Source of the DNA: a virus | IMG/VR virus record: IMGVR_UViG_3300032297_000368 | Location: 1-64,000 of that record | Reading direction: 5' to 3' (one strand) | DNA length: 64,000 nucleotides | In this document: in pieces, positions 34,855 to 48,666 of the stretch | How the letters are laid out: each line of letters starts with the position of its first letter | How positions within the stretch are numbered: position 1 is the first letter of the stretch | The notes under the pieces: generated by a model | What the model was told of the DNA's origin: nothing | Seen by the model: only the letters and a program-made list of their open reading frames with translations | The model's database searches: none | Program-made: the position numbers and the translations under genes

Positions 34855-35157
34855 TTAACAATTCCATTTTCTCAACGATTTGTTGATACGTGAATCTGGA
34901 TCACGTGCTGTTTCAGCTGATGTTAGTTTATCTTTCATGCCTCGCATTCTACGGCAGAATGATAATCTACGTTTAGCTGACTTAGAACCTTTTTTTAATT
35001 TTGATGGATCTGTAGTAACAGCAGTTTGTAACTTGGAACCTGGATTTTCACGGCGATAAGATTCAACTCCTTTTTGGTTTAAACCACCTTCAGGATTTTT
35101 TCCTTCTTTACGCTGCCATGCCGCAGATTCGTTAATAAATTCTTTGAATGATATCAT
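34855..35157 (-). CDS. conserved small basic T4-like protein with capsid-targeting-like N-terminus
   Basis: MISFKEFINE; GGLN.KG, RR.SFC.RM, SRINKSLRKWNC. Confidence 0.75.
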   Translation of the reverse strand: MISFKEFINESAAWQRKEGKNPEGGLNQKGVESYRRENPGSKLQTAVTTDPSKLKKGSKSAKRRLSFCRRMRGMKDKLTSAETARDPDSRINKSLRKWNC

Positions 35158-37394
35158 ACGAATTTCTTAGCCTTAAAAGTTTGTAGGTTAATACCTTTAC
35201 GTTTCAGTTCACCTTCTTTTTGATCGCCAATACTCATAGTTGTTTCATCACCAGTCATCTCAGTAACTTGTGATGCCTTACCATCTTTCTTACGAATCTT
35301 TTCACCTGTATCACGAGCAATGCTTTCACCAGATGCCGCCATAGAAAGACCTGGTTCTATGTTCTTGTCTATGGATTCGGCGATTTTGGCTTTCTGCCTT
35401 TGCCTGATTTCGATGAGTGAGAGTTTTTCTCGTTGCTCGTTGTAGTTTTGTGGCTTGGCGATTTCGGTTTGTTTTGATACGTTTTCTTCGGGGTGTATGT
35501 CTTTTTTGGCTGGTCGATAGGCTTTAAATTTGGCTCTGATCGAGTCTGCTGCTGGGGTTGAGACGGTTGGATCGGTGTTGCTTCCGTCTGTTCCGTCTTC
35601 TTGAATAGTTTCTTTACGAAATCTAGCATCTTCATTCTCCTTTATTTTAACAATGTAGCCAGTTTTATGTTTCATCACTTCACCATTTTTTAGGTGAGCT
35701 TCTTTTGCTGCAGCTCTACGTAACATAAACACTCTCAATTTACCTTTACCATCACGTAGTAGTTTAACTTTTTCATCCAACAATTCAACATCTTCATCAA
35801 CAAACAATTCTTCAAACTCTTCATTAACTTTCTTTCTTGGTTTCTTTGTCATTGATGTACCTGGAGTTGGAACTGAACCTGCTTCTTTTGGATCTTCTTT
35901 TGGTATTTCAACCAACTTACCATTAACTGAATGATGTGTAACTTTACCATTTCTACCATAACGGCCAAATCCATAATAAGTTAATCCCATAGTATTCATC
36001 TTATCTTTATGTGGATTTTCTGGATGTGCAGCCATTGTTGTTTTACTTGGTGATGGTGCAGCAGACAATCTATCTTTACGTGACATCTCATGTGCAATCC
36101 ATTCTTCAGCCTTAGGATTGGCAGCAGGTTGTTGTGTGAATTCACGGACACTTTTGAAAATGTCCATCATCTCACCTTTCTTTTGTTTAACAACTTCGGG
36201 TGGTGCTGATCTTAAATCTTCCGAATTATCAAACTCATGGTAATTATCACCAAACATTTTAGCATATTCAGTACGAGCATTCTGTACGCTTTCCCATTTT
36301 TCACGGCGAATGTTTTCTGGTACAGTACGACCACCACGTTGTCCACGTTCAATGTTTCTCTGTTGCGAGACTTCATCTTTAGTATTAACTAGAACCATCT
36401 TGGAGTCATATCCAAGTTCTTCCAAACGTTTTTTGATCTTAGTAACTTTCTCTACATCATCACCTGTACCATTGATGATAAGACCATTTCTACCTAATAG
36501 TGCCAATCGTTGGCGCAATTCGGTCATACTCTTTGCTTTACCACGAACAAGATTTCTTTTCTCTTCTTCACTTGCCGGCATTTTCTTATCAAGACCATTT
36601 TTATCCATTAAGAATTCTAATGCCTTATCTGAATTGATCTCTGTCAATCCATGGCCTGATAGTGTGTTATCTAACACATAGTCTTTACCAGAACCAGGTC
36701 CCCCAGCAAGAAATACTACTTTAAAGATTGATTGATCGTGAACACCTTCATTCAATAAACTTTCAAACTTGGTGTTGATATCTTCATGTAAGCTCATACC
36801 TTTATGTACATCATGCATTAATTCTTTTGCATGTTTATCTGATACATGTGCAGGTACACCTTTACGGAAAGATTTGAAATCATTGTTCTTAACATGTTCA
36901 CGCATCTTTGTACCAGAAATGCCTGTATCACCTTCAGCATCCGGATCTCTTGTACCTGCGGAATGTATTGTGATCTTTTTGAAATGAAATGGTACTTTGC
37001 CTTCTTTGTTAGGTTTACCATTTAGTTCTTTGAATTTTTGTTTGTACTCGGGTACACGATCTGAACCTGCAACAACATGTAGATGTGTTACGCCACTCTT
37101 ATGCAATTCAGCGGCATGTGAGAAAATGGTAGGATTTTCTTTACTAGAGGCTTTTATGTTGGCACCTGGAGCATAACGCTTTAAATGCTTAACTTTTTGT
37201 TCGCCAGATAATGGATTCTTTTTAGAATCTTGTGAGTGAGATACAATCATATGATGTTCGCCACCTACGTCTTTGGCAACATCTTGCACCTTATTAATAA
37301 CTTTAAGGTGACCAGTGGTTGGTGGGTTCATACGACCGTAAGCTAATACGGCGTGTTTTTCTTTCTGTTCGACCAGAAAATCTTTGAAATTCAT
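35154..37394 (-). CDS. cytidylyltransferase-like (HxGH) domain fused to P-loop kinase (PNK/zeta-like) plus C-terminal modules
   Basis: GRMNPPTTGH, KKNPL, GSDR, SGTKMR; LAGGPGSGK, RNIER lid; N-terminus MNFKDFLVE. Confidence 0.85.
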   Translation of the reverse strand: MNFKDFLVEQKEKHAVLAYGRMNPPTTGHLKVINKVQDVAKDVGGEHHMIVSHSQDSKKNPLSGEQKVKHLKRYAPGANIKASSKENPTIFSHAAELHKSGVTHLHVVAGSDRVPEYKQKFKELNGKPNKEGKVPFHFKKITIHSAGTRDPDAEGDTGISGTKMREHVKNNDFKSFRKGVPAHVSDKHAKELMHDVHKGMSLHEDINTKFESLLNEGVHDQSIFKVVFLAGGPGSGKDYVLDNTLSGHGLTEINSDKALEFLMDKNGLDKKMPASEEEKRNLVRGKAKSMTELRQRLALLGRNGLIINGTGDDVEKVTKIKKRLEELGYDSKMVLVNTKDEVSQQRNIERGQRGGRTVPENIRREKWESVQNARTEYAKMFGDNYHEFDNSEDLRSAPPEVVKQKKGEMMDIFKSVREFTQQPAANPKAEEWIAHEMSRKDRLSAAPSPSKTTMAAHPENPHKDKMNTMGLTYYGFGRYGRNGKVTHHSVNGKLVEIPKEDPKEAGSVPTPGTSMTKKPRKKVNEEFEELFVDEDVELLDEKVKLLRDGKGKLRVFMLRRAAAKEAHLKNGEVMKHKTGYIVKIKENEDARFRKETIQEDGTDGSNTDPTVSTPAADSIRAKFKAYRPAKKDIHPEENVSKQTEIAKPQNYNEQREKLSLIEIRQRQKAKIAESIDKNIEPGLSMAASGESIARDTGEKIRKKDGKASQVTEMTGDETTMSIGDQKEGELKRKGINLQTFKAKKFV
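35369..35629 (-). CDS. putative overprinted gene in an alternative frame
   Basis: AAGGAG-N7-ATG; MLDFVKKLFKK amphipathic start plus K/P/Q-rich tail. Confidence 0.5.
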   Translation of the reverse strand: MLDFVKKLFKKTEQTEATPIQPSQPQQQTRSEPNLKPIDQPKKTYTPKKTYQNKPKSPSHKTTTSNEKNSHSSKSGKGRKPKSPNP

Positions 37395-37441: not shown

Positions 37442-38145
37442 TATATTTCTACTTTTCCTGTACTGGCCATGGTGCCTTGGCAGTGAATATTTTCTAATTC
37501 TAACAGATATTTTTTGTCAATATTATACCAATGTGCATGTTCCGTGTCAACACCTTGCGTTTGTACATCGTTTAGATTTTTCTGGCAAACTTGCAGATAG
37601 TCGTCAAACAAAGATATACAGAAAGAAAACAATCTGGTAATTAGAAGATTCGAGTATATCTGTTGTCTCTTGTCCGTTATCCATGTTGGCATGGCTTTCT
37701 TGAACACATACTTACCAAACTTATCATGTTCTAGTGCATCGAATTGATCTAACAGGTTTGTACGTGCCGACAATTTAAAGATTCGTTTGACTGAACTTAA
37801 CTCTTTCATCAAATCCACATTACGTTTGAATATGATTAGAGTTTTAAGTATCAGTACATTTTCAGCCTCGCTCTTTCGACCTGTAGAAGCAAACTGTGTA
37901 ATATCAGGATCAGTTGACATATCTAATATCACATCACAATAATGTGCAATTCTATCGTAAGTTTCACGGTCAACTTTATTAGGAGAACCATCAGTAAATA
38001 CAATCATATCATGTGGACATTTTTCACGTAATGATTTAAGACCTTCTATTGTTTGTTGTAGTCGATCTTCATTGTTAATGACACCCATATTAGGATTCAA
38101 AGCAGATGTCACAATAAACAGATTTCTATTTAAAAGAATACTCAT
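37438..38145 (-). CDS. putative glycosyltransferase-like protein
   Basis: IVTSAL...R..QT, DGS, FKLSAR, D.EH motifs; inside the sugar island. Confidence 0.55.
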   Translation of the reverse strand: MSILLNRNLFIVTSALNPNMGVINNEDRLQQTIEGLKSLREKCPHDMIVFTDGSPNKVDRETYDRIAHYCDVILDMSTDPDITQFASTGRKSEAENVLILKTLIIFKRNVDLMKELSSVKRIFKLSARTNLLDQFDALEHDKFGKYVFKKAMPTWITDKRQQIYSNLLITRLFSFCISLFDDYLQVCQKNLNDVQTQGVDTEHAHWYNIDKKYLLELENIHCQGTMASTGKVEIY

Positions 38146-39149
38146 AGTTTTATTTTTCTCATGGTGTCTATCATCAAAGATTCTATGTCTGTATTAGGTT
38201 TCCAACCCAATATTTCTTTTGCCTTGTCATAAGAACCTAAGGCAAACTTATTAACTTCTCGTTCTAATACTTCAGGCTTCAAAGTCTTCTCACCTTCATT
38301 CAGTACAGGATAACCTGACCAGAATTTGGTCGATGGATTAAATGTAGGTTTAATTGGTTCTTGAAATGCGGATTCAGCATAACCTATAATATCTCTAACT
38401 GAAGTTAATGTATTGGTGCATACATTAAAGATTTCATTCTTAGCTTCTTCTTTAGATAAGCATAACTCAATCAGATTAACTACATCATCAACGTGTACAT
38501 AATCTCGAACTTGTTTACCGTTTGAATAGAATACTGGATCTTTACCATTGATAATCGTCTTTGCGATATAGTTAATCAAAGGTGGAGATTCACGATGAAT
38601 GTCTTGTCTAGGACCAAATACATTGAAGAATCTTAGTGTAACGATATCCATGTCATAGTTCTTGATGTATGATTGAATAACTTCTTCCATCAACTTCTTA
38701 GATAATGGATAGAATAATCGAGGTGTTACTTCTATATCTTCATCGAATGGTGCATCGAGTCTGCTATTGTTTTCGTATATTGCTGAAGTACTTGCAACAA
38801 TAACTCTCTGGCCTCTAGACTTTCGAACTGCATCTAGTATCGATGCTGTACCTGCAACATTAACTTTGATACACTCGGCAGGATCACTTTCACATACAGG
38901 CAATGCTGTTATAGCTGCAAGGTGAATGACTACATCGATCTTATGTTTCTCTAAAATGAAAAACATCTTAGCACTTTCTAAGATATCATCTTGGTAGAAA
39001 TCACATATCATTTCACCATCTTCGATTAGGTTTGCTATGTAACCATTGTTGAGATTATCAACAACAACTGGAGTATGGCCATTATTTTTCAATAGTAGTG
39101 CTAGAGTAGAACCTATACCACCTGCACCACCAGTAATTAATATATTCAA
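38142..39149 (-). CDS. NAD-dependent nucleotide-sugar epimerase/dehydratase
   Basis: TGGAGGIG, HLAA, YxxSK, LRFFNVFGPRQ, RDYVHVDD. Confidence 0.92.
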   Translation of the reverse strand: MNILITGGAGGIGSTLALLLKNNGHTPVVVDNLNNGYIANLIEDGEMICDFYQDDILESAKMFFILEKHKIDVVIHLAAITALPVCESDPAECIKVNVAGTASILDAVRKSRGQRVIVASTSAIYENNSRLDAPFDEDIEVTPRLFYPLSKKLMEEVIQSYIKNYDMDIVTLRFFNVFGPRQDIHRESPPLINYIAKTIINGKDPVFYSNGKQVRDYVHVDDVVNLIELCLSKEEAKNEIFNVCTNTLTSVRDIIGYAESAFQEPIKPTFNPSTKFWSGYPVLNEGEKTLKPEVLEREVNKFALGSYDKAKEILGWKPNTDIESLMIDTMRKIKL

Positions 39150-40165
39150 ATCAAGTCCTTCAATTGGTCAGAATCACGAGGTATGTTTACTGCTACTGCT
39201 GTTGGGTATGGATTAGTTTTAGCGTAATCATTAATCAAGATACGTTTTGAATGATGTACTTCCATAATCAAATCACAATCGGCAAAACCTAAATCATCTA
39301 ATAGATTTCTAGTAATAGATTCATACTTTTTATTTCTTGCCGTACAGAAGATGATCTTACAACCTTCTTCTTTCTTTTGAATTAACTTCTGTACATTCTC
39401 CATGATTGGTTCATAATCATCATAGTAATCATTTTGAGTCTTGATTATTGTACCATCGATGTCGCAGAAATAAGTAGGTTTATCATTGAATTTAAACCAA
39501 TCATCGGCAGTACCAACATCAATAAAGTTTCTGGTATTTTGTTCTACGAATACACTGCCTGTAGATATCATGTAATCGATAATATTAGATACGAATATCT
39601 CACTCTTCCATGTAGATGTTAGTAATCTATAAGCACGAGCAAAATCAGCCGCAGACTTAAACTGATAACCACCTACACAAAAACTATCACTCACAATTTT
39701 CTTTTCAACTACTGAACTGATAATGTTTTGTTCATTAGTAATCGTATAACTTTTGGCTGGTGCGTTTCTTATATCAGGATTTTCAGATAACTTAGATACA
39801 TAGATGGCATTTCCTTCTACCAAATCTGTATCATAAAAACCATCACAGTCTTTAATTAATATCGGTGAATTCATATTGATTGCACCAGTCATCAACGTTT
39901 GATAAACTGTATCAGCAGGACCGGCAGTTGGTTGACCTAGAACAACAATACTAACCTTATCACCAAAAGCATCTTTCAATTTCTGTGAGGCCTTATACTT
40001 GTCATCATGCGCTCTCAGAATCGTAATAACAATCCTGTGTTTACCTAAGAAGTTTTTAATGGCATTTTCAATCATCATCTTACCCGAATAATCGGTAAGT
40101 AGATACTTTGGCCTCATATTCGGGAATCTGGTCGATAGACCAGCACATGGCATAATTATTTCCAT
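39146..40165 (-). CDS. sugar nucleotidyltransferase fused to HAD phosphatase
   Basis: PCAGLSTRF...PK, KDCD, DVGT; C-terminal CDIDGT, TAR, INDY. Confidence 0.85.
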   Translation of the reverse strand: MEIIMPCAGLSTRFPNMRPKYLLTDYSGKMMIENAIKNFLGKHRIVITILRAHDDKYKASQKLKDAFGDKVSIVVLGQPTAGPADTVYQTLMTGAINMNSPILIKDCDGFYDTDLVEGNAIYVSKLSENPDIRNAPAKSYTITNEQNIISSVVEKKIVSDSFCVGGYQFKSAADFARAYRLLTSTWKSEIFVSNIIDYMISTGSVFVEQNTRNFIDVGTADDWFKFNDKPTYFCDIDGTIIKTQNDYYDDYEPIMENVQKLIQKKEEGCKIIFCTARNKKYESITRNLLDDLGFADCDLIMEVHHSKRILINDYAKTNPYPTAVAVNIPRDSDQLKDLI

Positions 40166-40899
40166 AATTTCTTTATCTCATCTATCAAAAATTTTTCGTC
40201 AGTATCATTTCGTGTATATGGTAATACTCTCATCAACATCAAGATTAAAATATAATCATTATTAAAATGAGGATAATCTTGTAATCCATCAATTATAGAT
40301 TGTAGTTTAGAATCTAAGTAAACTGAATCATTACGTATGAACCATTTACATTGTAAGTCTTGTCTTAGTTTTGCTAAGTCGAAAACAAATGAACTATAAA
40401 CAGTTGTTAATGGATCAATTAAAACAAATTCATTCTTTTGTGTATTGTATAATACATTCTCTAGAGTAAAATCACCATGATACTCAGAATAAGGTAAATA
40501 CTCTGGTAACTTACCAATTAATTCTTCTGTAGTAAAAGGTAAGTTGTATTGTGTAAAATCTTTCTCTGCTAACTTAGTTCTATAAACATCAACAAAACTC
40601 ATCTCTATAGTCTTTTCAGATAGTTTGTCTATAGTTTCCCTAATGAATTTTATTATCTCATTAGTTTGATTAGTTGCAAGATAAGTTTTCATATCTAGAT
40701 TAGGAATATACTCCATATTATAATGAGTGTCAAGAACCTCATATATAATTGGTATTTTTATACCTAAATGTGACAATACATCATATCTCTCCAAATTGCG
40801 AGAAATATCTCCAGACTTACGGACAAATATTCCGTTGTCATCTACTAATTCAACTTCAGCTTTAGAGTATCCCATAAATTTTTTTAGTCTTTTTGCCAA
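40156..40899 (-). CDS. APH/choline-kinase-like sugar kinase
   Basis: MEYI, HGDFTLENVL, LIDP, DLAKL. Confidence 0.8.
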   Translation of the reverse strand: MAKRLKKFMGYSKAEVELVDDNGIFVRKSGDISRNLERYDVLSHLGIKIPIIYEVLDTHYNMEYIPNLDMKTYLATNQTNEIIKFIRETIDKLSEKTIEMSFVDVYRTKLAEKDFTQYNLPFTTEELIGKLPEYLPYSEYHGDFTLENVLYNTQKNEFVLIDPLTTVYSSFVFDLAKLRQDLQCKWFIRNDSVYLDSKLQSIIDGLQDYPHFNNDYILILMLMRVLPYTRNDTDEKFLIDEIKKLWK

Positions 40900-41594
40900 T
40901 TTTCAAAATCGTCCCGTATCAAAGAGTGCCATGTGCCGTTATGGGGACCTGGTGGAAAAGGATGATTTGGATTAAAATACACCAAGTTATGACCAACAAG
41001 ACCTTTTTCTTTCCAGTTGGCACTCATCATATCTTCACCGATCATTGTAACGCCATCATCGTAATGTCTATCAATGTTATTAAACGAATCTGCATAACTG
41101 TTCATATGTCGTGATGAAGAGAATGCAAATTGGTCATTACCAAAATCACGGTCAGGTGTCATTCGACAATTTGGTATATACAGTTTAGAATCATCTAGTG
41201 TTTCAAATGGTATGACAACATTCAAAGCAAAGTCATATCGACTGCGAACAACCCAATCAAAATACATTTTATGTTCATGTTCATACTCCATCTTCAACTC
41301 ATTAGCCTTCATCAAGGCATATTGTTGATTCCAAGTTGCACGTGCCGGATCTTTTACTTTCCAATTTGGTTGTGGAGGAGGAACTCTGGTGTATTTTGAT
41401 AGATCATTATCTAGCGATGCCTCAACAGCAAACTTTGCAGGTTTGTATAGTTCGAATATATCTTTGGCCTTTGGTGTTTGCCATACATGACAGAATACGG
41501 TAACATCATAACGATCTAATAAATTCTTTTTATGATATTCAAACCCTTGTTCGAAACACCTAGGTTGTCCTGATAAACATAATGCAATTTTCAT
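40884..41594 (-). CDS. putative glycosyltransferase
   Basis: KIALCLSGQPR, DWVVRSRYD, NDQFAF, GE motifs. Confidence 0.65.
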   Translation of the reverse strand: MKIALCLSGQPRCFEQGFEYHKKNLLDRYDVTVFCHVWQTPKAKDIFELYKPAKFAVEASLDNDLSKYTRVPPPQPNWKVKDPARATWNQQYALMKANELKMEYEHEHKMYFDWVVRSRYDFALNVVIPFETLDDSKLYIPNCRMTPDRDFGNDQFAFSSSRHMNSYADSFNNIDRHYDDGVTMIGEDMMSANWKEKGLVGHNLVYFNPNHPFPPGPHNGTWHSLIRDDFENWQKD

Positions 41595-42292
41595 TTGTAG
41601 AATCTTTCAAAAACTTCTTCATTAATTTTATAATTACGATCTGATGGTAAATTAGTCCTACACAAAGTATAGTAACTATTCACATCACTAAATTGCTCTT
41701 CTTGTGATATTAAATGTATCTCAGAAGGATCAATATACTGTATCAGTTTATTATATAGTCCATGTGTATCATGTGACATTGCAGAATCTCTATATGCACC
41801 GTAAGATTCGTGTAGAGATTTCTTCACAATACTGGTCATTCTTTGTGGCCACACATAAAAATTATCTGTAGTATATCTTAAATCATTCCAATGGTTTGAT
41901 TCTGGAAATAGAAAGTTAAATTTATTCACATCTATATTTTCATCTAACATAACTCTATTAAAGTGTATATCAGAACGAGTTAAGATAAACAAGTCTGCAT
42001 CTACAGTCTCTAATAAATCTAATGCGCCACTCTTTGTGGTGAATCCATCAGAGTTCTCAAACTTACAGTAATTAATCTCTTTAGGTTTTACTAAATCTAC
42101 TATATCGGCTTCTATCAAAGGATTAAATGATTTGTATGTTGAAAGATATAATTCAACTTCATGACCACTTTGTATGGCAGGATCAACTAAATTCTTTTTG
42201 ATATTTGGCCAACAATGACGAAGGTCTCTGAGACTGCCGAACTTGCCGCCAGTCCCGTAGATTATACCAAAAAGACAGATTGCTATTCTCAT
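41591..42292 (-). CDS. putative glycosyltransferase, paralogue of downstream gene
   Basis: RIAICLFG, DLFILTRSD, DNFY. Confidence 0.55.
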   Translation of the reverse strand: MRIAICLFGIIYGTGGKFGSLRDLRHCWPNIKKNLVDPAIQSGHEVELYLSTYKSFNPLIEADIVDLVKPKEINYCKFENSDGFTTKSGALDLLETVDADLFILTRSDIHFNRVMLDENIDVNKFNFLFPESNHWNDLRYTTDNFYVWPQRMTSIVKKSLHESYGAYRDSAMSHDTHGLYNKLIQYIDPSEIHLISQEEQFSDVNSYYTLCRTNLPSDRNYKINEEVFERFYK

Positions 42293-42858
42293 TTAACCCA
42301 ATACCAAACATCACATTCGGTGGTCAAGATTTCTTTACCCATCTTGGCAGCAAATTCTTTTACTGCCTTATTAACACCAGGTATTACAGTGAAATCATGT
42401 CCTGCAAATATACCACCATCTTTTACTTTTGAATAATAGTTTGCACAATCTATAGAGAGTTGCTCGTAAGTATGTAAACCATCAATAAAAATATAATCAA
42501 AAAAAGAATCATTTAAAAGTCCCACAGCCTCATCAGAAGTTTTTTTATAAAAATTAAATCTTTCACCAAAAGGTAATAGACGTTGCATTGCGGTATCAAA
42601 GACTTCATTTCGATTGTCTAAGTTTCTACCATTCCAATCAACATAAGTCATGTAAGGATCAATGACATGTAATGTTAATTGTGGTAAACTGGATAACATG
42701 AAGTGTGAAGTATCTCCTATATCACATCCAATTTCTAAACCAACAATTGATTCTCTATCTTTAACTAAGTCACGTAGTCCATAACCAGAACATTTCATCT
42801 CTGTTGCTGGTCGGCCAAATGCTTCATGCTCGGTGTTAATTGTAATTGTATCACTCAT
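42289..42858 (-). CDS. class I SAM-dependent methyltransferase (Methyltransf_24-like)
   Basis: LEIGC, IDP, IFIDGLHTYE, GGIFAGHDF. Confidence 0.88.
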   Translation of the reverse strand: MSDTITINTEHEAFGRPATEMKCSGYGLRDLVKDRESIVGLEIGCDIGDTSHFMLSSLPQLTLHVIDPYMTYVDWNGRNLDNRNEVFDTAMQRLLPFGERFNFYKKTSDEAVGLLNDSFFDYIFIDGLHTYEQLSIDCANYYSKVKDGGIFAGHDFTVIPGVNKAVKEFAAKMGKEILTTECDVWYWVK

Positions 42859-43693
42859 ATTTTGCCTCTATAATTTTTTTCCATTCAGGTACACGATCAT
42901 ATTGATGCACTATTACATATTCTTTTCCTTCAGATGTAACAACTTTATCGCCTTCTAATTTAGGAGTTGCCTCTACTAAGAAAGGTTTGAATTGTTCTAT
43001 CTTACTAGGATCAGCAGTAGTTCCTAATTGACATGCCCATCCATCTTCTGAAGTCATGTACATACTACTCTTCAAATAAGGATGTTGTGATATCAATACA
43101 TTAAATGTAGATTGATCTACAATAGGAATTGGACGATTGATTGATGATAAGAAGATGTTTAATGCTAAAGACTTCATAGCATAACCACGGCCTGCCAATA
43201 CACCAACGTTGAATATAACATTGTTCTTGAAGTGATCGTGAATCATAGGACCGAAAGTCTCTAATAGATTCTGATTGCCCCATGGTTCATCTTTGTAACG
43301 AATGCTTTCAGAAGAGAATACTAAGTCTTCAGATGAACCATCTGGTAGATGTTGTTCTAACCATTCAACAGGATTTTTCTGAAAGATAACGTCTTTAACA
43401 TCAGTGGTAATAACATACCGATAGTCTTGTGATTTTAATGTATTGTAGATGTGAATGAATCTTTCAACGTGTACCATCAATTGAGATTGATACACTAAGT
43501 TTCCATTATCATCTTGTTGAAATGCAATAACACTGAAACCAGCATTACTGACTTGTTGAACTGTTTCTTTATCACAATTCATAAGAATCAGGACTTTATC
43601 GCCTTCAAATCCTGATTTATTAATTGAATTAACCCAATACTTCAGTTTCGACCAATCATAGTTAGTCGAACATCCTATAATCAAATCCTTCAT
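42851..43693 (-). CDS. GT-A fold glycosyltransferase-like protein
   Basis: TDVKDVIFQ.NP, NVGV..G, DQ..FN, VHQYDR. Confidence 0.75.
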   Translation of the reverse strand: MKDLIIGCSTNYDWSKLKYWVNSINKSGFEGDKVLILMNCDKETVQQVSNAGFSVIAFQQDDNGNLVYQSQLMVHVERFIHIYNTLKSQDYRYVITTDVKDVIFQKNPVEWLEQHLPDGSSEDLVFSSESIRYKDEPWGNQNLLETFGPMIHDHFKNNVIFNVGVLAGRGYAMKSLALNIFLSSINRPIPIVDQSTFNVLISQHPYLKSSMYMTSEDGWACQLGTTADPSKIEQFKPFLVEATPKLEGDKVVTSEGKEYVIVHQYDRVPEWKKIIEAKYE

Positions 43694-43706
43694 AATAACT
43701 CCAATT

Positions 43707-44441
43707 TTAATTTACATATTTTCTAAATCTTTTGATACTTTGACCTGGTGTTCCTTTTATATAGTTATCTCGTAGCTCTGGTCTTCCATCTTCACCCGCA
43801 CCAGCCTTAGATACGAACTCTTGTTCTTCTTTAATAGTTCTAATAGAACCATTATGACTTGCTAGATATGCTGAAAACTGTACATCTGGAAATTCTTTCT
43901 TCATTGCCAACATTGCTGTCAAATTACTCATAGCATCATCAAACAAACGAACTCTACTAAATTTACCATACTTTAAATATTTACGTATGATCTTAACTTT
44001 GTTTTCTGCACTAGGGTTATTACCTAGATTACCTGCACGTTCAACATAAACTTTATCCATATCAACACCGTGTTGCCTGAATGTATCTAGGAACAAATGT
44101 TTATTGTCGAAATCGGAACGTGCTGTGATTATTATAACACGACTATTGGATTTATTCGAGACATTTTTTAAAATACTCTTCAACTTTGCCATCATTCGTG
44201 GTATAACTTTTGATTCTTTATTGAACTTCTCAGCATCTCTAAACTGACTGTAATCAAATGATTCGCCAGCTTTAAGTTTATATGTATTAAACTCTTGATT
44301 AGTCAATTCTTTAATGACTTTACCAGATTTAATAACGGCAATCTTTGCTGTTGTTTGGAATAAAGTCTCATCAATATCAAATATGGTAAGTCCACCACCT
44401 TCTTCGATAGACTCATTTAAAAATTGTGTGAAGTTTTTCAT
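43707..44441 (-). CDS. HAD phosphatase (Pnkp/RNA-repair HAD-like) with capsid-targeting-like N-terminus
   Basis: Start MKNFTQFLNE; IFDIDETLF, ITAR, K, LFDD motifs. Confidence 0.8.
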   Translation of the reverse strand: MKNFTQFLNESIEEGGGLTIFDIDETLFQTTAKIAVIKSGKVIKELTNQEFNTYKLKAGESFDYSQFRDAEKFNKESKVIPRMMAKLKSILKNVSNKSNSRVIIITARSDFDNKHLFLDTFRQHGVDMDKVYVERAGNLGNNPSAENKVKIIRKYLKYGKFSRVRLFDDAMSNLTAMLAMKKEFPDVQFSAYLASHNGSIRTIKEEQEFVSKAGAGEDGRPELRDNYIKGTPGQSIKRFRKYVN

Positions 44442-44446
44442 TTTTA

Positions 44447-44767
44447 TTATACTGTGAATGATGATCCACAACCGCAACTTGCTTTTGCGTTTGGATTATT
44501 TACTACGAATTGAGAAGATGTCATATCTTTTTTGAAGTCTATGGTTGCTTCATTTAAATATTGCATTGATATTGCATCTACTAAAACTTTAATGCCGTGT
44601 TGTTCAAATGATAGATCATCTTCTGAAGCCTGTTCTTCAATTGTAAACCCATATTGAAAACCAGAACAACCACCACCTTGAACAAATACACGCAATGAAC
44701 CTGGAGTATCTTCATCTTCTAAAATACTTTTTATTTGTTTTGCTGCCGATTCTGTAATCTGTATCAC
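44447..44767 (-). CDS. erpA: A-type Fe-S cluster carrier (ErpA/IscA family)
   Basis: GGGCSGFQYGF, NPNA...CGCGSSF. Confidence 0.9.
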   Translation of the reverse strand: MIQITESAAKQIKSILEDEDTPGSLRVFVQGGGCSGFQYGFTIEEQASEDDLSFEQHGIKVLVDAISMQYLNEATIDFKKDMTSSQFVVNNPNAKASCGCGSSFTV

Positions 44768-44768
44768 A

Positions 44769-45050
44769 TTAACCTCTCGTTAGATTCAATATCTTTTGTA
44801 TTTGAGTCTCTAATGTTTCTTTACGGTTTGGCCATTTAATGATTGGTTGATCTGCCGTCTTTAATAATTTAGTTAAGAAAGGCAATATTAATTTCTCGAC
44901 TTGTTGTAAACGTTCTTTATATTCTTCTGCCGTTTCTTCTTTCTCGGCAATTACATCTGTATATTCTTCTTCATCTATTGCTGTGAATCCGAAATCATCA
45001 TCAGCAAATTCATCAATAATTTTACTTAGGTCAAATTTCTTTTCAGCCAT
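44769..45050 (-). CDS. conserved hypothetical protein
   Basis: DDFGFT, ILPFL..L, I.WPNR. Confidence 0.7.
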   Translation of the reverse strand: MAEKKFDLSKIIDEFADDDFGFTAIDEEEYTDVIAEKEETAEEYKERLQQVEKLILPFLTKLLKTADQPIIKWPNRKETLETQIQKILNLTRG

Positions 45051-46276
45051 TATTTACTCCAATTCTTAGCAGCATTAAAGTTTGCTTGACTAAACTCTAA
45101 TCTATCTACAAGTTTTACCGCATTACCTTTAAGTCTATCAACAGCAACAAATCCTTCTGGTGCTGTAATTCTATAACCATCGTCTGTACGTATGAATGTA
45201 CCGATTGAACGAATGGTTTCTAATTTACGTACAATCAATAATTTACAATCAACTAAAAGATTCATCAGTTCAAAAATCTTTTGTAATTCGCCAGCAGAAC
45301 CACGGAAGAATCTCATCATCTCATTCTTCTCTGCAATTCTTTTCTTCTTAGTATCATCTCTCTTTGCTGCTTGTACTTCTTTATTTAACTTCTCTTCAAT
45401 CCATTTTATCAGTTCAACAGTGTGAGCTCTTGTATTGGTAATCTTCTGCCCTTGGCGTATCTTTGTGTTGTTGAATGTTTTAATGAAAGTTAGAATAGAA
45501 TCTACGGAAGATATTCTATTTAACACTATAGAATTAATACTTCTAAATGTTCTACCTGCTTCGGTTAATTTACTTGAAAGTATTTTAGTTTCAGTTTCGG
45601 TGAATGTTGCAGTACCTGAAGCATCAGTGAATGAAGCATCACGGAACCAAACATCTTTAGTTGTTGATAGATTACCAATATCGATGTTGAATGATGCCTT
45701 CATATCAGACATTGTTTTACCTGTGTATGAGGTATGAAACACTACACCAACATGTGCAGCCATCATTGTCTTTGCCAGTTTAGAATCTGAAGGCACAGCA
45801 TAAACAATTGTATTAGGTTGAAACACTATGTACTCTTCACCATCAATTATTTTTGTATCGATATCACCTTTACTAAACATCATATCACCTTGAAGGATGC
45901 CTTTGATGCCTAGTTTAGGTAGATAACGTAATGCCATTTTAAGTTTATTGTTAAGACCTTCAGAAGCATGATTGTTATCAATATCTTCTTCTGTATAATT
46001 TAATTTAGCATCTTTATTGAATACTGATTTAGTACCAACAAAAAACTTACCGTTTTCTGGATTGGTGCCAACAAAAATTGCTGGCGCACCGTCCCATTTA
46101 GTTGTGATATTAATCTTTGACTGTGCATGACCAGCAAGCATATCACGCAAACTTTGTAAGAAATTTATGGCACCTCGAGCACCAGCAACTCCGCCATTTA
46201 AGACTTCATCTTCTAGATGTTCGAGGTGTAAATTCTTACCTTGTTTATCTTCTGTTAAATATTCTATGAATTTCAT
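45050..46276 (-). CDS. conserved T4-like protein (DUF6267-like) with covalent nucleotidyltransferase/ligase motifs
   Basis: HLEHLED; KWDG (motif I), QGD (III), EGFV (IV), VKLVDR (V); N-terminus MKFIEYLTE. Confidence 0.7.
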   Translation of the reverse strand: MKFIEYLTEDKQGKNLHLEHLEDEVLNGGVAGARGAINFLQSLRDMLAGHAQSKINITTKWDGAPAIFVGTNPENGKFFVGTKSVFNKDAKLNYTEEDIDNNHASEGLNNKLKMALRYLPKLGIKGILQGDMMFSKGDIDTKIIDGEEYIVFQPNTIVYAVPSDSKLAKTMMAAHVGVVFHTSYTGKTMSDMKASFNIDIGNLSTTKDVWFRDASFTDASGTATFTETETKILSSKLTEAGRTFRSINSIVLNRISSVDSILTFIKTFNNTKIRQGQKITNTRAHTVELIKWIEEKLNKEVQAAKRDDTKKKRIAEKNEMMRFFRGSAGELQKIFELMNLLVDCKLLIVRKLETIRSIGTFIRTDDGYRITAPEGFVAVDRLKGNAVKLVDRLEFSQANFNAAKNWSK

Positions 46277-46278
46277 TT

Positions 46279-47505
46279 TTAGTATATCTTTACAAATGGT
46301 CCGTTAGTGTCTCTAAATTCTTTCTTTGCACCATAGTATAATGTTTTCAACCATTCAGCCATTAATCCTTTCTTCTCGATTAAAGCCCAAGCATATGCCC
46401 ATCTCATACATGTCAACTTTGATGATAATCTTCCACCAGCATACTTAGAACCCTCCTCTCGAATAGAATAATCTAATACATTAGCAAACGAACCAGTAGA
46501 AACTATTTTACCTTTATACACAACTTTCATTTCACCAAAATCTATACTCATACGATTGACTTTAAGTTTAGATAACTCTTTTTGAAAATCAATCCAATAT
46601 TTTTTAGTTTCTGTTGTCCATTTTCCTACAGGAGGAATATGAGGGTCTTTACCTGCATTAACTGGTCTAATTATTCCGAGTTTATTATAATATTTCGAAA
46701 AGAACTCATCAATGGCGTCAGCAGAAGCTTTACCAATTTTAGCACCAGCATCTTTTCCTGTAGGAGTTAAATCGGTCTGAACACCACCTCTAGGAGTTGA
46801 CATGTTAAAGTTTCTTGTTTGCCAATTAACAATTGTATCGTTCACTTTAAATTGTCCAGCAATTTCTCCATTATCTATCTCTGTTGGAGTTTTGTTATTT
46901 GTTCCGAAATTTGCATAACACTTCAAGGGGCCAACATTTTCAAATGTTAACTCTTTCTGTTTGCCTTTACCCATATTAGATAATTCTAAATCAGCTTTAG
47001 CTTTAGTTTTAGAAATAGCTTTAAGTGATACAGGAACTAAATCTTTAGTTTGTATTAATTCTCTCATGTACGCATTTAAAGAATAAAGATTGGCCATTTT
47101 ATCAGGATTTTTAGTGATTGAATCTAATTTTTTTCTTATTACATTTTCTTTTGTTTTTCTAACCATGTAAATATCAGCAGGATCCCAATTATCTTTTGTT
47201 GAAACGCCACATCTTTTTTTAGCAATATCTTCAATGAATGCCATAAAACCATCTCGTTCATCACGAGAATAGGAATATCCTTTATTACTATCGCCTAGAT
47301 AATTTTTTAGAGCAATACATTGTTTAGTGTATGTAGATAACCATATTTCTCTAAGTTTTACGTCTTTAGCTAATTGAGGATAAACTTGTACGATCTCAGA
47401 AAACAACTGAGATTCTGTAGGTGTTTTAACACTTTCAATCCATAATTTGAAAGCAACTTTAGAACCATTCTCTTGTTTAGCTGTCTCTATCGCATTGCCG
47501 GCCAT
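46279..47505 (-). CDS. putative PD-(D/E)xK restriction-like nuclease
   Basis: N-terminal QE, WDPADIY, VSLK catalytic-type motifs. Confidence 0.55.
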   Translation of the reverse strand: MAGNAIETAKQENGSKVAFKLWIESVKTPTESQLFSEIVQVYPQLAKDVKLREIWLSTYTKQCIALKNYLGDSNKGYSYSRDERDGFMAFIEDIAKKRCGVSTKDNWDPADIYMVRKTKENVIRKKLDSITKNPDKMANLYSLNAYMRELIQTKDLVPVSLKAISKTKAKADLELSNMGKGKQKELTFENVGPLKCYANFGTNNKTPTEIDNGEIAGQFKVNDTIVNWQTRNFNMSTPRGGVQTDLTPTGKDAGAKIGKASADAIDEFFSKYYNKLGIIRPVNAGKDPHIPPVGKWTTETKKYWIDFQKELSKLKVNRMSIDFGEMKVVYKGKIVSTGSFANVLDYSIREEGSKYAGGRLSSKLTCMRWAYAWALIEKKGLMAEWLKTLYYGAKKEFRDTNGPFVKIY

Positions 47506-47533: not shown

Positions 47534-47541
47534 TATTTATA
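47534..47541 (-). promoter_or_regulatory. T4-type late promoter TATAAATA
   Basis: Exact consensus upstream of the 47505 start. Confidence 0.7.
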
Positions 47542-47550
47542 TTAACACGG

Positions 47551-48666
47551 CTACCGAATTATGTCAATATCTTTTCCGCTAGTCCAAACCTCTTGTTCTG
47601 TACGTAAACGACCTTCGGTCTTCAGAGTTTCATATCTGTTAATGGCTTTCTTTCTCCACCACTCAATAATGTTACTCAAATGAAACTTTTCATAGTTCTC
47701 ACCAGCCTCTAGTTTAGTGGCTTTTCCATTGACAAAATCGACCATATTTTTGTAACCATAGTCAGATATGAAGTATCGTTTCTGTTCGTTCAGATTCTTG
47801 GCCTTCTCGATGGTTTCTTTAAATTTTACACCTTCTGGTGTTCCTTTAAGTGCGATACCAACCATCGAAACTATTGCATTTGATATTTTCAATTTACGAC
47901 TAGAAGCATTTAGTGGTGCCAATGGTTCACCAGTAATATTCTCAACATATTCTTTCAGATCAGTATATGTTTTACCGTGTAACATAGGAAGAAAATCTGA
48001 ATCTGTTAGACCTTTGTAACGAATAAAAGGTTTCATGCCATCATATTGTGACACTGTTTTTGTAGAACCATATAAAGAAGTGGTTTCAAAAAGACAAGTG
48101 TTCATTTTATACTTGGCATTTAACATCTCACGAACTTCATGTGATGTACAGATTGCCGCCATAAGTTTACCACCTAGATAATTATAACCAAATGGTTGTG
48201 AAGGTACAATAACAAAACCCATAGCAGCACACTCATTGAATCTTTTGGCACCACCCTCAGTTTGTGTAAACACTGCTCCAAGCATCTCATTACGTGGCTT
48301 ACAGTTAATCACAGGTGAACCTAGGCGAATAAAACCACACCATTTACCAGTTGTCTTTTCCATAACAGCAAGTCTTAGGCAACGACCTGGAATACTTGTC
48401 ATATTAGAATGACTTGATATTATGTTAAGATATAAGTCCCATTGCGATTGTGACAACTCGACCACCTCAAACTCCATCGACTCTGGAGAGAGACTAAAAT
48501 CTGAGTATAGGTCTTCTTCTGGTCCCCCAAAAGGAAGCGCAGGAGGTCTATCGGAGAGACTGGCCAATTTCTGTTCACGCATGTACTCATCAATACGATT
48601 GAACTTGTCAAAGTAGTCACTATAAATGTTAGCACAATGTAATGCTTGTTCTTTTGTTAACTTCAT
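47551..48666 (-). CDS. DUF4338/DruA-like protein (predicted GNAT-like fold)
   Basis: PGR.LR..V, GFIRLGSP, PFGYNYLGGKL, ETTSLYG, SQY. Confidence 0.7.
   Translation of the reverse strand: MKLTKEQALHCANIYSDYFDKFNRIDEYMREQKLASLSDRPPALPFGGPEEDLYSDFSLSPESMEFEVVELSQSQWDLYLNIISSHSNMTSIPGRCLRLAVMEKTTGKWCGFIRLGSPVINCKPRNEMLGAVFTQTEGGAKRFNECAAMGFVIVPSQPFGYNYLGGKLMAAICTSHEVREMLNAKYKMNTCLFETTSLYGSTKTVSQYDGMKPFIRYKGLTDSDFLPMLHGKTYTDLKEYVENITGEPLAPLNASSRKLKISNAIVSMVGIALKGTPEGVKFKETIEKAKNLNEQKRYFISDYGYKNMVDFVNGKATKLEAGENYEKFHLSNIIEWWRKKAINRYETLKTEGRLRTEQEVWTSGKDIDIIR

Follow-up and report, generated by a model that had tools for sequence, protein, structure and literature searches.

The stretch of viral DNA studied here (64,000 nucleotides, positions 1 to 64,000 of IMG/VR record IMGVR_UViG_3300032297_000368, hereafter the window) raises the question of what kind of enzyme is encoded by its DUF6267 gene, a 408-amino acid (aa) open reading frame (ORF) located on the minus strand at 45050-46276. 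The virus is a T4-like marine myovirus, and the 81.5-kb record from which the window is taken is estimated to be 49% complete. The initial annotation, made from the sequence alone, had considered the protein DUF6267-like and proposed a divergent ligase or adenylyltransferase. Its identity as a strong DUF6267 member is evident from a full-length match to Pfam PF19782 (E 7e-117, 391 bits, profile 1-376/376, above the gathering score). The ORF, the Pfam match, the AlphaFold (AF2) model and the structural matches describe a ligase-fold protein of the covalent nucleotidyltransferase type. The explanation favoured here, with a probability of about 0.6, is a divergent protein of the polynucleotide ligase superfamily, devoid of an OB domain and nearest to ATP-dependent RNA ligases, which is expressed late and predicted to be packaged into the head of this phage.

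Motifs and predicted fold of the DUF6267 protein

Translation of the ORF places the five peptides read earlier as a nucleotidyltransferase signature (TKWDG, ILQGD, PEGFV, AVKLVDR and HLEHLED) exactly where they had been located. The N-terminal motif H17-LEHLE-D23 (46208-46228, minus strand, like all features of the gene) is separated by a 7-residue linker from the leader peptide discussed below and is followed by a helix (residues 21-47); its distance to motif I is about that of the SLENHY peptide in T4 Rnl2, to which it may be equivalent. Motif I, T-K60-W-D-G63 (46088-46102), with the predicted nucleotidylated lysine, lies in the model in a loop between strands 55-60 and 66-71, and the motif III-like I127-L-Q-G-D131 (45884-45898) lies on strand 127-135. 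The long helical insert that had been noticed between motifs III and IV is present in the AF2 secondary structure as helices spanning residues 227-353 (45218-45598), between strand 209-213 and the motif IV strand. Motif IV, P373-E374-G375-F-V377 (45146-45160), aligns to EGYV of T4 Rnl1 and Rnl2. Motif V, A386-V-K388-L-V-D-R392 (45101-45121), has one conserved lysine and a conserved arginine; K388 aligns to the first lysine of K-x-K, the position of the second is occupied by Val390, and R392 follows.

Conservation of these residues was assessed in an alignment of 68 representatives, 36-61% identical to the window protein. Residues H17, H20, K60, D62, G63, Q129, G130, D131, E374, V377, K388, L389, D391 and R392 are conserved in at least 90% of the sequences, and G375 of motif IV is invariant. 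The motif set is thus near-invariant across the family and not a chance occurrence.

The fold was evaluated on two AlphaFold models, one of the window protein (pLDDT 90.6, pTM 0.87) and one of a natural short form of DUF6267; such forms, of about 300-325 aa, have a reduced helical region between motifs III and IV. In an all-against-all structural search, the matches of both models were almost exclusively RNA and DNA ligases, and for the short form the top 33 of 48,161 chains were ligase or capping-enzyme folds without exception. The highest score was obtained with NgrRnl of Naegleria gruberi (PDB 5cot; 8.9, root mean square deviation 3.8, 186 aa), followed by Trl1 (8.2), T4 Rnl2 (8.0), T4 Rnl1 (7.5), archaeal Rnl3 (7.3) and REL1 (7.1). 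The DNA ligases III, I, IV, T4, T7 and Chlorella virus match less well (5.7-6.8) than these RNA ligases. Foldseek independently ranked the Trl1 ligase domain first. A nucleotidyltransferase-domain fold is thus present in the predicted structure, and the earlier proposal of a divergent ligase or adenylyltransferase holds as far as fold and motifs are concerned. The ends of the aligned ranges, measured against known ligase lysines (K170 of NgrRnl, named in PDB titles; K35 and K225/K227 of Rnl2), give a spacing that fits K60 and K388; on these aligned ranges, K60 would be the equivalent of the nucleophile.

Similarity at the sequence level is faint. HMMER searches of PDB sequences, started from either the single protein or the family profile, returned no ligase at E<=10, and the ESM Atlas neighbours of the protein are nothing but unnamed viral clusters. 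PF09511 (RNA_lig_T4_1) has no match to the window protein at E<=10 and a weak one (6e-4) in two of 68 DUF6267 relatives; PF09414 (Rnl2/Rnl5) does not match DUF6267. Comparison with T4 Rnl1 and Rnl2 by hhalign was never significant, whether single sequences or profiles of 118 to 120 members were used, with or without the helical insert. A consistent local alignment was nevertheless recovered, which places E374-G375...K388 on motifs IV-V of Rnl1 and Rnl2 (E 0.02-0.14) and K388 on K240 of Rnl1 and K225 of Rnl2. Against the Rnl1 family profile it covers motifs IV-V only (E 0.02-0.1), against Rnl2 the E value is 0.14-0.6, and the N-terminal half of DUF6267 is out of register with both T4 enzymes.

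The architecture differs from that of each known group. The model contains no OB domain, only 16 residues forming one helix after motif V, and no motif VI; T4 gp30 and other ATP-dependent DNA ligases (PF01068) possess an OB domain with motif VI and a DNA-binding domain, and DUF6267, a late gene, has none of these. NgrRnl, of the Rnl5 type, is the closest fold, although sequence similarity to it is undetectable; it has an N-terminal domain which DUF6267 lacks, and DUF6267 differs from it in the N-terminal HxEHxED motif, the helical insert between motifs IIIa and IV and the single lysine of motif V. The C-terminal helical domain of T4 Rnl2 and trypanosome REL1, for which profile comparison was non-significant, is missing, as is the C-terminal tRNA-binding domain of T4 Rnl1 and the fungal Trl1 ligase domain (PF09511); neither an Rnl2 C-terminal nor an Rnl5 N-terminal domain is appended in the model. 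T4 rnlA is moreover neither late nor leader-tagged, unlike the window gene. DUF6267 is best described, on the modelled structure, as a putative new OB-less branch of polynucleotide-ligase-type adenylyltransferases with a predicted activity.

The catalysis that we infer is as follows. K60 of KWDG would attack the α-phosphate of ATP, or possibly of NAD+, to yield enzyme-AMP, with D131, E374/G375, K388 and R392 lining the nucleotide pocket. The AMP would then be passed to a 5'-phosphate end, which would be joined to a 3'-OH; a DNA nick or a broken RNA is the candidate substrate.

Late transcription and the N-terminal leader

The ATG of the DUF6267 gene lies 2 nucleotides (nt) past the stop of another 408-aa gene (46279-47505, minus strand; phrog_1462), which heads the operon and is homologous to Syn9 gp182 and P-HM2 PHM2_161. 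A perfect T4-type late promoter, TATAAATA, is located at 47534-47541 on the minus strand, 29-36 nt upstream of the ATG at 47505 and inside the 45-nt gap ahead of that gene. On the minus strand of the window there are just five copies of ATAAATA (47540, 31797, 23135, 16101 and 11808), all located 34-71 nt ahead of an ORF start; a holin-like gene and one that is weakly virion-like are among the other genes so headed. Judged from the sequence, these sites are a clean map of the putative late promoters of this phage. The motif is also scarce, TATAAATA being seen three times on both strands of the window against 8.8 expected, and ATAAATA is strongly depleted.

The arrangement recurs in related phages. 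Among 60 related loci, TATAAATA stands 30-102 nt upstream of DUF6267 itself in seven, and ahead of the gene upstream of it, as in the window, in about a dozen. The orthologue in P-HM2, a Prochlorococcus phage, is PHM2_162; it was found experimentally to fall in the Late class under both conditions, together with PHM2_163 and PHM2_164, and the adjacent PHM2_160 in the Mid class (PMC5082946, supplement 3). The DUF6267 gene thus sits among replication genes, yet appears to belong to a late transcription unit.

The first nine codons of the gene (46250-46276, minus strand) encode MKFIEYLTE, which a pattern scan identified as similar to the capsid-targeting leader of T4 IPII/IPIII; it ends in L-x-E, in keeping with a gp21-type (L/I)-x-E site. 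The concept of capsid targeting by such a sequence comes from PMC3012670. The pattern was modelled on the T4 leader and has a chance match of 0.0016 per N-terminus. Four true ORF starts in the window carry it, as compared to about 0.1 expected by chance. The other three are MKNFTQFLNE of a HAD phosphatase with a DIDET motif (43707-44441), MNFKDFLVE of a 746-aa protein that joins an NMN adenylyltransferase (NMNAT)-like nucleotidyltransferase to a P-loop (Zeta/AAA_33) kinase (35154-37394), and MISFKEFINE of a DUF6321 protein (34855-35157), all on the minus strand; among cyanophages, the 746-aa protein has as its orthologue the 'cytidylyltransferase' T4-GC190. Applied to the T4 record, the pattern retrieves ipII and ipIII (MKTYQEFIAE, 'internal virion protein') together with a few false positives.

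The leader behaves as a facultative module. It is found in 46 of 103 DUF6267 representatives, and in 28 of 60 loci on a strict match; the leaderless forms begin with M(A)KNTHLEHLED, exactly past the predicted cleavage Glu. In the model of the window protein the leader region (residues 1-11) is disordered, with a pLDDT below 50. The record also encodes a prohead protease of the gp21 type (Peptidase_S77, E 8.5e-38). The window protein therefore has in common with T4 IPII/IPIII an N-terminal leader of about 10 residues (M-K-x-aromatic-x-x-aromatic/aliphatic-aliphatic-x-E), late expression and a gp21-type protease. The cargo differs, being small basic anti-restriction proteins in IPII/IPIII and a 45-kDa predicted enzyme, with predicted packaging and cleavage, in DUF6267. 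Since the leader stands at the N-terminus, the tagged protein would probably enter the prohead, be cut after Glu9 by the gp21 protease and be delivered together with the DNA; the leader-tagged HAD phosphatase and the NMNAT-like nucleotidyltransferase/P-loop kinase would take the same route. The leaders suggest that the window DUF6267 protein is probably packaged in the head together with these partner enzymes.

Published virion proteomes bear on this suggestion. For the leader-bearing T4-GC190 (MKKFSAFLNE), 25 peptide counts were recorded in S-SM1 virions (PMC3037559, Table S8); the products of its flanking genes GC1453 and GC1454 were detected as well, and the S-SM1 DUF6267 protein (GC71), which is leaderless, was undetected (PMC3037559). 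DUF6267 is absent from the virion protein lists of S-SM1, S-PM2 and Syn9, and the Syn9 and P-HM2 copies are leaderless. The S-SM1 proteomics fits packaging without proving it. As the cyanophage copies are leaderless or undetected, packaging would be a trait of some lineages, including this phage, and not of the whole family.

Two S-SM1 proteins are found in virions although leaderless, SSM1_188 (L002:2110-2943; 12 counts), encoded directly upstream of DUF6267, and SSM1_191 (L002:5085-6435; 10 counts), encoded downstream of the GC190 cytidylyltransferase; non-canonical virion proteins are thus frequent throughout the block that surrounds DUF6267. Separately, the last ~27 residues of the HAD protein (43707-43790) resemble the C-terminus of the cyanophage T4-GC190 nucleotidyltransferase (L059:3236-4384), with 59% identity over 27 aa and the common pattern G.PEL..NY.K..TPG..I..F.K. 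This shared C-terminus may be a second module of leader-tagged proteins.

Partner enzymes and gene neighbourhood

The gene order UvsX, gp41, a variable gene, DUF6267 and a HIGH-motif nucleotidyltransferase is conserved. The nucleotidyltransferase is encoded downstream of DUF6267, on the same strand and within 6 kb, in 32 of 40 loci; within the same distance and on the same strand a kinase is found in six and a HAD protein in two. About one-fifth of the representatives listed are DUF6267 fusions, and Pfam CTP_transf_like was detected in eight of 20 fusions scanned. The architectures revealed by BLAST are nucleotidyltransferase + DUF6267, DUF6267 + nucleotidyltransferase, kinase + DUF6267 and one triple fusion of nucleotidyltransferase + HAD + DUF6267; PHROG 455 covers DUF6267 as well as the nucleotidyltransferase.

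The best, though weak, matches of the nucleotidyltransferase partner are NMN adenylyltransferases. The kinase partner matches Zeta and AAA_33 and, weakly, phage polynucleotide kinase, and the HAD partner is weakly similar to the phosphatase part of phage polynucleotide kinases and to HisB-type phosphatases. When the partner proteins were searched against T4 by tblastn, no similarity to Pnkp or any other T4 protein was recorded. A kinase, a phosphatase and a ligase constitute the classic end-healing and sealing triad, exemplified by T4 Pnkp/Rnl1 and fungal Trl1. The NMNAT-like partner stands outside this scheme, and it is possible that NAD+ serves as the AMP donor or that the chemistry is different.

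In the window, all genes around DUF6267 are on the minus strand. The order is gp45 clamp, gp44 clamp loader, RegA, Hsp20, dCMP deaminase, gp43 polymerase, UvsX and gp41 helicase, followed by a DruA-like gene, the phrog_1462 gene, DUF6267, a 93-aa ORF, an IscA-like gene and the HAD phosphatase, homologues of which are fused to DUF6267 elsewhere. The 93-aa acidic protein (44769-45050, minus strand) has a start that overlaps the DUF6267 stop. The IscA-like iron-sulphur cluster assembly gene (44447-44767, minus strand; PF01521, E 2.7e-23) is part of the late operon, with DUF6267 on one side and the HAD phosphatase on the other. DUF6267 is parted from the nucleotidyltransferase in this window by a sugar/cell-surface metabolism island on the minus strand (38142-43693), which encodes an NAD-dependent epimerase/dehydratase, an IspD-like nucleotidyltransferase-HAD fusion, an APH-like kinase, a DUF7796 protein and a methyltransferase.

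The 371-aa DruA-like gene (47551-48666, minus strand), flanked by gp41 and the late promoter, is similar to the Druantia defence protein DruA (PF14236, E 2.9e-10) and belongs to a conserved phage family (phrog_19197, E 5e-134), and may thus be, by sequence similarity, a phage-borne homologue of a host defence component.

Distribution of the family and alternative explanations

The window protein has more than 8,000 close homologues, and the family comprises about 2,800 representatives at 50% identity. Among the phage collection, 471 records contain DUF6267, nearly all of them Synechococcus or Prochlorococcus myoviruses; it is further present in Pelagibacter, Methylophilales, Vibrio, Pseudoalteromonas and Stenotrophomonas phages, annotated as hypothetical in every case. 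The nearest named relative is that of Methylophilales phage Melnitz (49% identity). In the comparison of Sullivan et al. 2010 the family is cluster T4-GC71, found in 16/16 cyanomyoviruses (PMC3037559, supplement), and a literature search found no paper naming DUF6267 or PF19782.

A single-protein scan of species genomes gave no cellular homologue. The alignment-based scan gave 68 matches, mostly in metagenome-assembled genome bins of unrelated phyla and one in a 188-kb isolate contig. Since the phage gene order (UvsX-gp41) is seen in these wherever flanks are available, no cellular branch of the family was observed. The isolate contig, of 188,235 bases in the assembly of Nonlabens xiamenensis strain 1Q3, carries UvsX, gp41, DUF6267 and the nucleotidyltransferase in phage order and probably represents a myovirus that was co-cultured or carried, not bacterial DNA.

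The cyanomyoviruses have been reported to lack gp30, and reviews call their ligase 'missing' (PMC2984593, PMC1079782). DUF6267 might accordingly be the replicative DNA ligase of marine T4-like phages, a gp30 substitute that seals Okazaki fragments in the cytoplasm. Its presence in 16/16 cyanomyoviruses, its position just after UvsX and gp41, and the lack of a match to the ligase families tested in DUF6267 phages agree with this explanation: PF01068 has no match in this record, Melnitz or S-SM1, and PF09414 and PF01653 have none in these three, Syn9 or P-HM2. T4, the positive control, matches both PF01068 and PF09414 and has gp30 without DUF6267. The timing, however, is late rather than middle, as evident from the late promoter and from the Late class of PHM2_162 against the Mid class of its neighbour PHM2_160. 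The window protein also bears a capsid-targeting leader, has no OB or DNA-binding domain and resembles RNA ligases more than DNA ligases. A gp30 ligase is reported for Stenotrophomonas phage DLP6 (PMC5349666), and a DUF6267 match is found in one Stenotrophomonas phage record, perhaps of another phage. Late expression, the leader and an RNA-ligase-like architecture devoid of an OB domain together make a simple replacement of gp30 unlikely, and this reading was rejected. Much less probable still is a catalytically dead ligase-fold protein with a structural or scaffold role. The activity of DUF6267 is predicted only and the family is very divergent in sequence, but all candidate catalytic residues are at least 90% conserved in a family of 2,800 representatives at 50% identity, and such conservation is the signature of an active site under selection.

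A tentative but more serious competitor of the packaged enzyme is a late enzyme that stays in the cytoplasm, its N-terminal peptide being no packaging signal; the role of such an enzyme could be, for instance, to close nicks in concatemeric DNA prior to or in the course of packaging, or to repair RNA at a late stage of infection. The cyanophage orthologues are late but leaderless, that of S-SM1 is undetected in virions, and the leader pattern is short, with false positives in T4. Against this, the leader is facultative and discrete, its end being marked by a conserved Glu, right past which the leaderless forms begin; it occurs on four neighbouring genes where 0.12 would be expected by chance; and the sole leader-bearing partner with proteome data, T4-GC190, was found in the virion. 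It is rather doubtful, though a little less so than the substitution for gp30, that the ligase fold transfers a nucleotidyl group to a target other than nucleic acid, by AMPylation of a protein or small molecule or by NAD-linked chemistry with the NMNAT-like/kinase partner. Such a role would be in line with the tight linkage and recurrent fusion to a HIGH-motif nucleotidyltransferase that weakly resembles NMN adenylyltransferases, with the NadR-like domain pair formed by the NMNAT-like/kinase partner, with the lack of a recognisable nucleic-acid-binding domain in DUF6267 and with the atypical motif V. The structural matches, nearest to RNA ligases, favour the OB-less polynucleotide ligase.

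If the packaged ligase-like enzyme is considered along with its partners, a wider and more speculative proposal emerges, in which many marine T4-like phages might package and inject an end-processing set consisting of the new ligase family, a P-loop kinase, a HAD phosphatase and an NMNAT-like nucleotidyltransferase. Where host nucleases had cut the incoming genome, or host RNA, these enzymes could heal and seal the breaks ahead of all phage gene expression. We know of no earlier virion-delivered nucleic-acid repair kit, and such a set, if true, would be the first.

Few viruses on Earth are as abundant as the T4-like myoviruses that infect cyanobacteria, SAR11 and other marine bacteria. DUF6267 is nevertheless 'hypothetical' in annotation, despite its occurrence in 16/16 cyanomyoviruses and in about 2,800 representatives. 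For the marine T4-like myoviruses, which reviews describe as having no recognisable DNA or RNA ligase, it provides a concrete and testable candidate for the 'missing ligase'. A compact OB-less ligase from cold-ocean phages may also be of use as a reagent. Late expression, the leader for head targeting and the conserved partners all point away from the sealing of Okazaki fragments, and possibly towards a packaged repair or counter-defence function.

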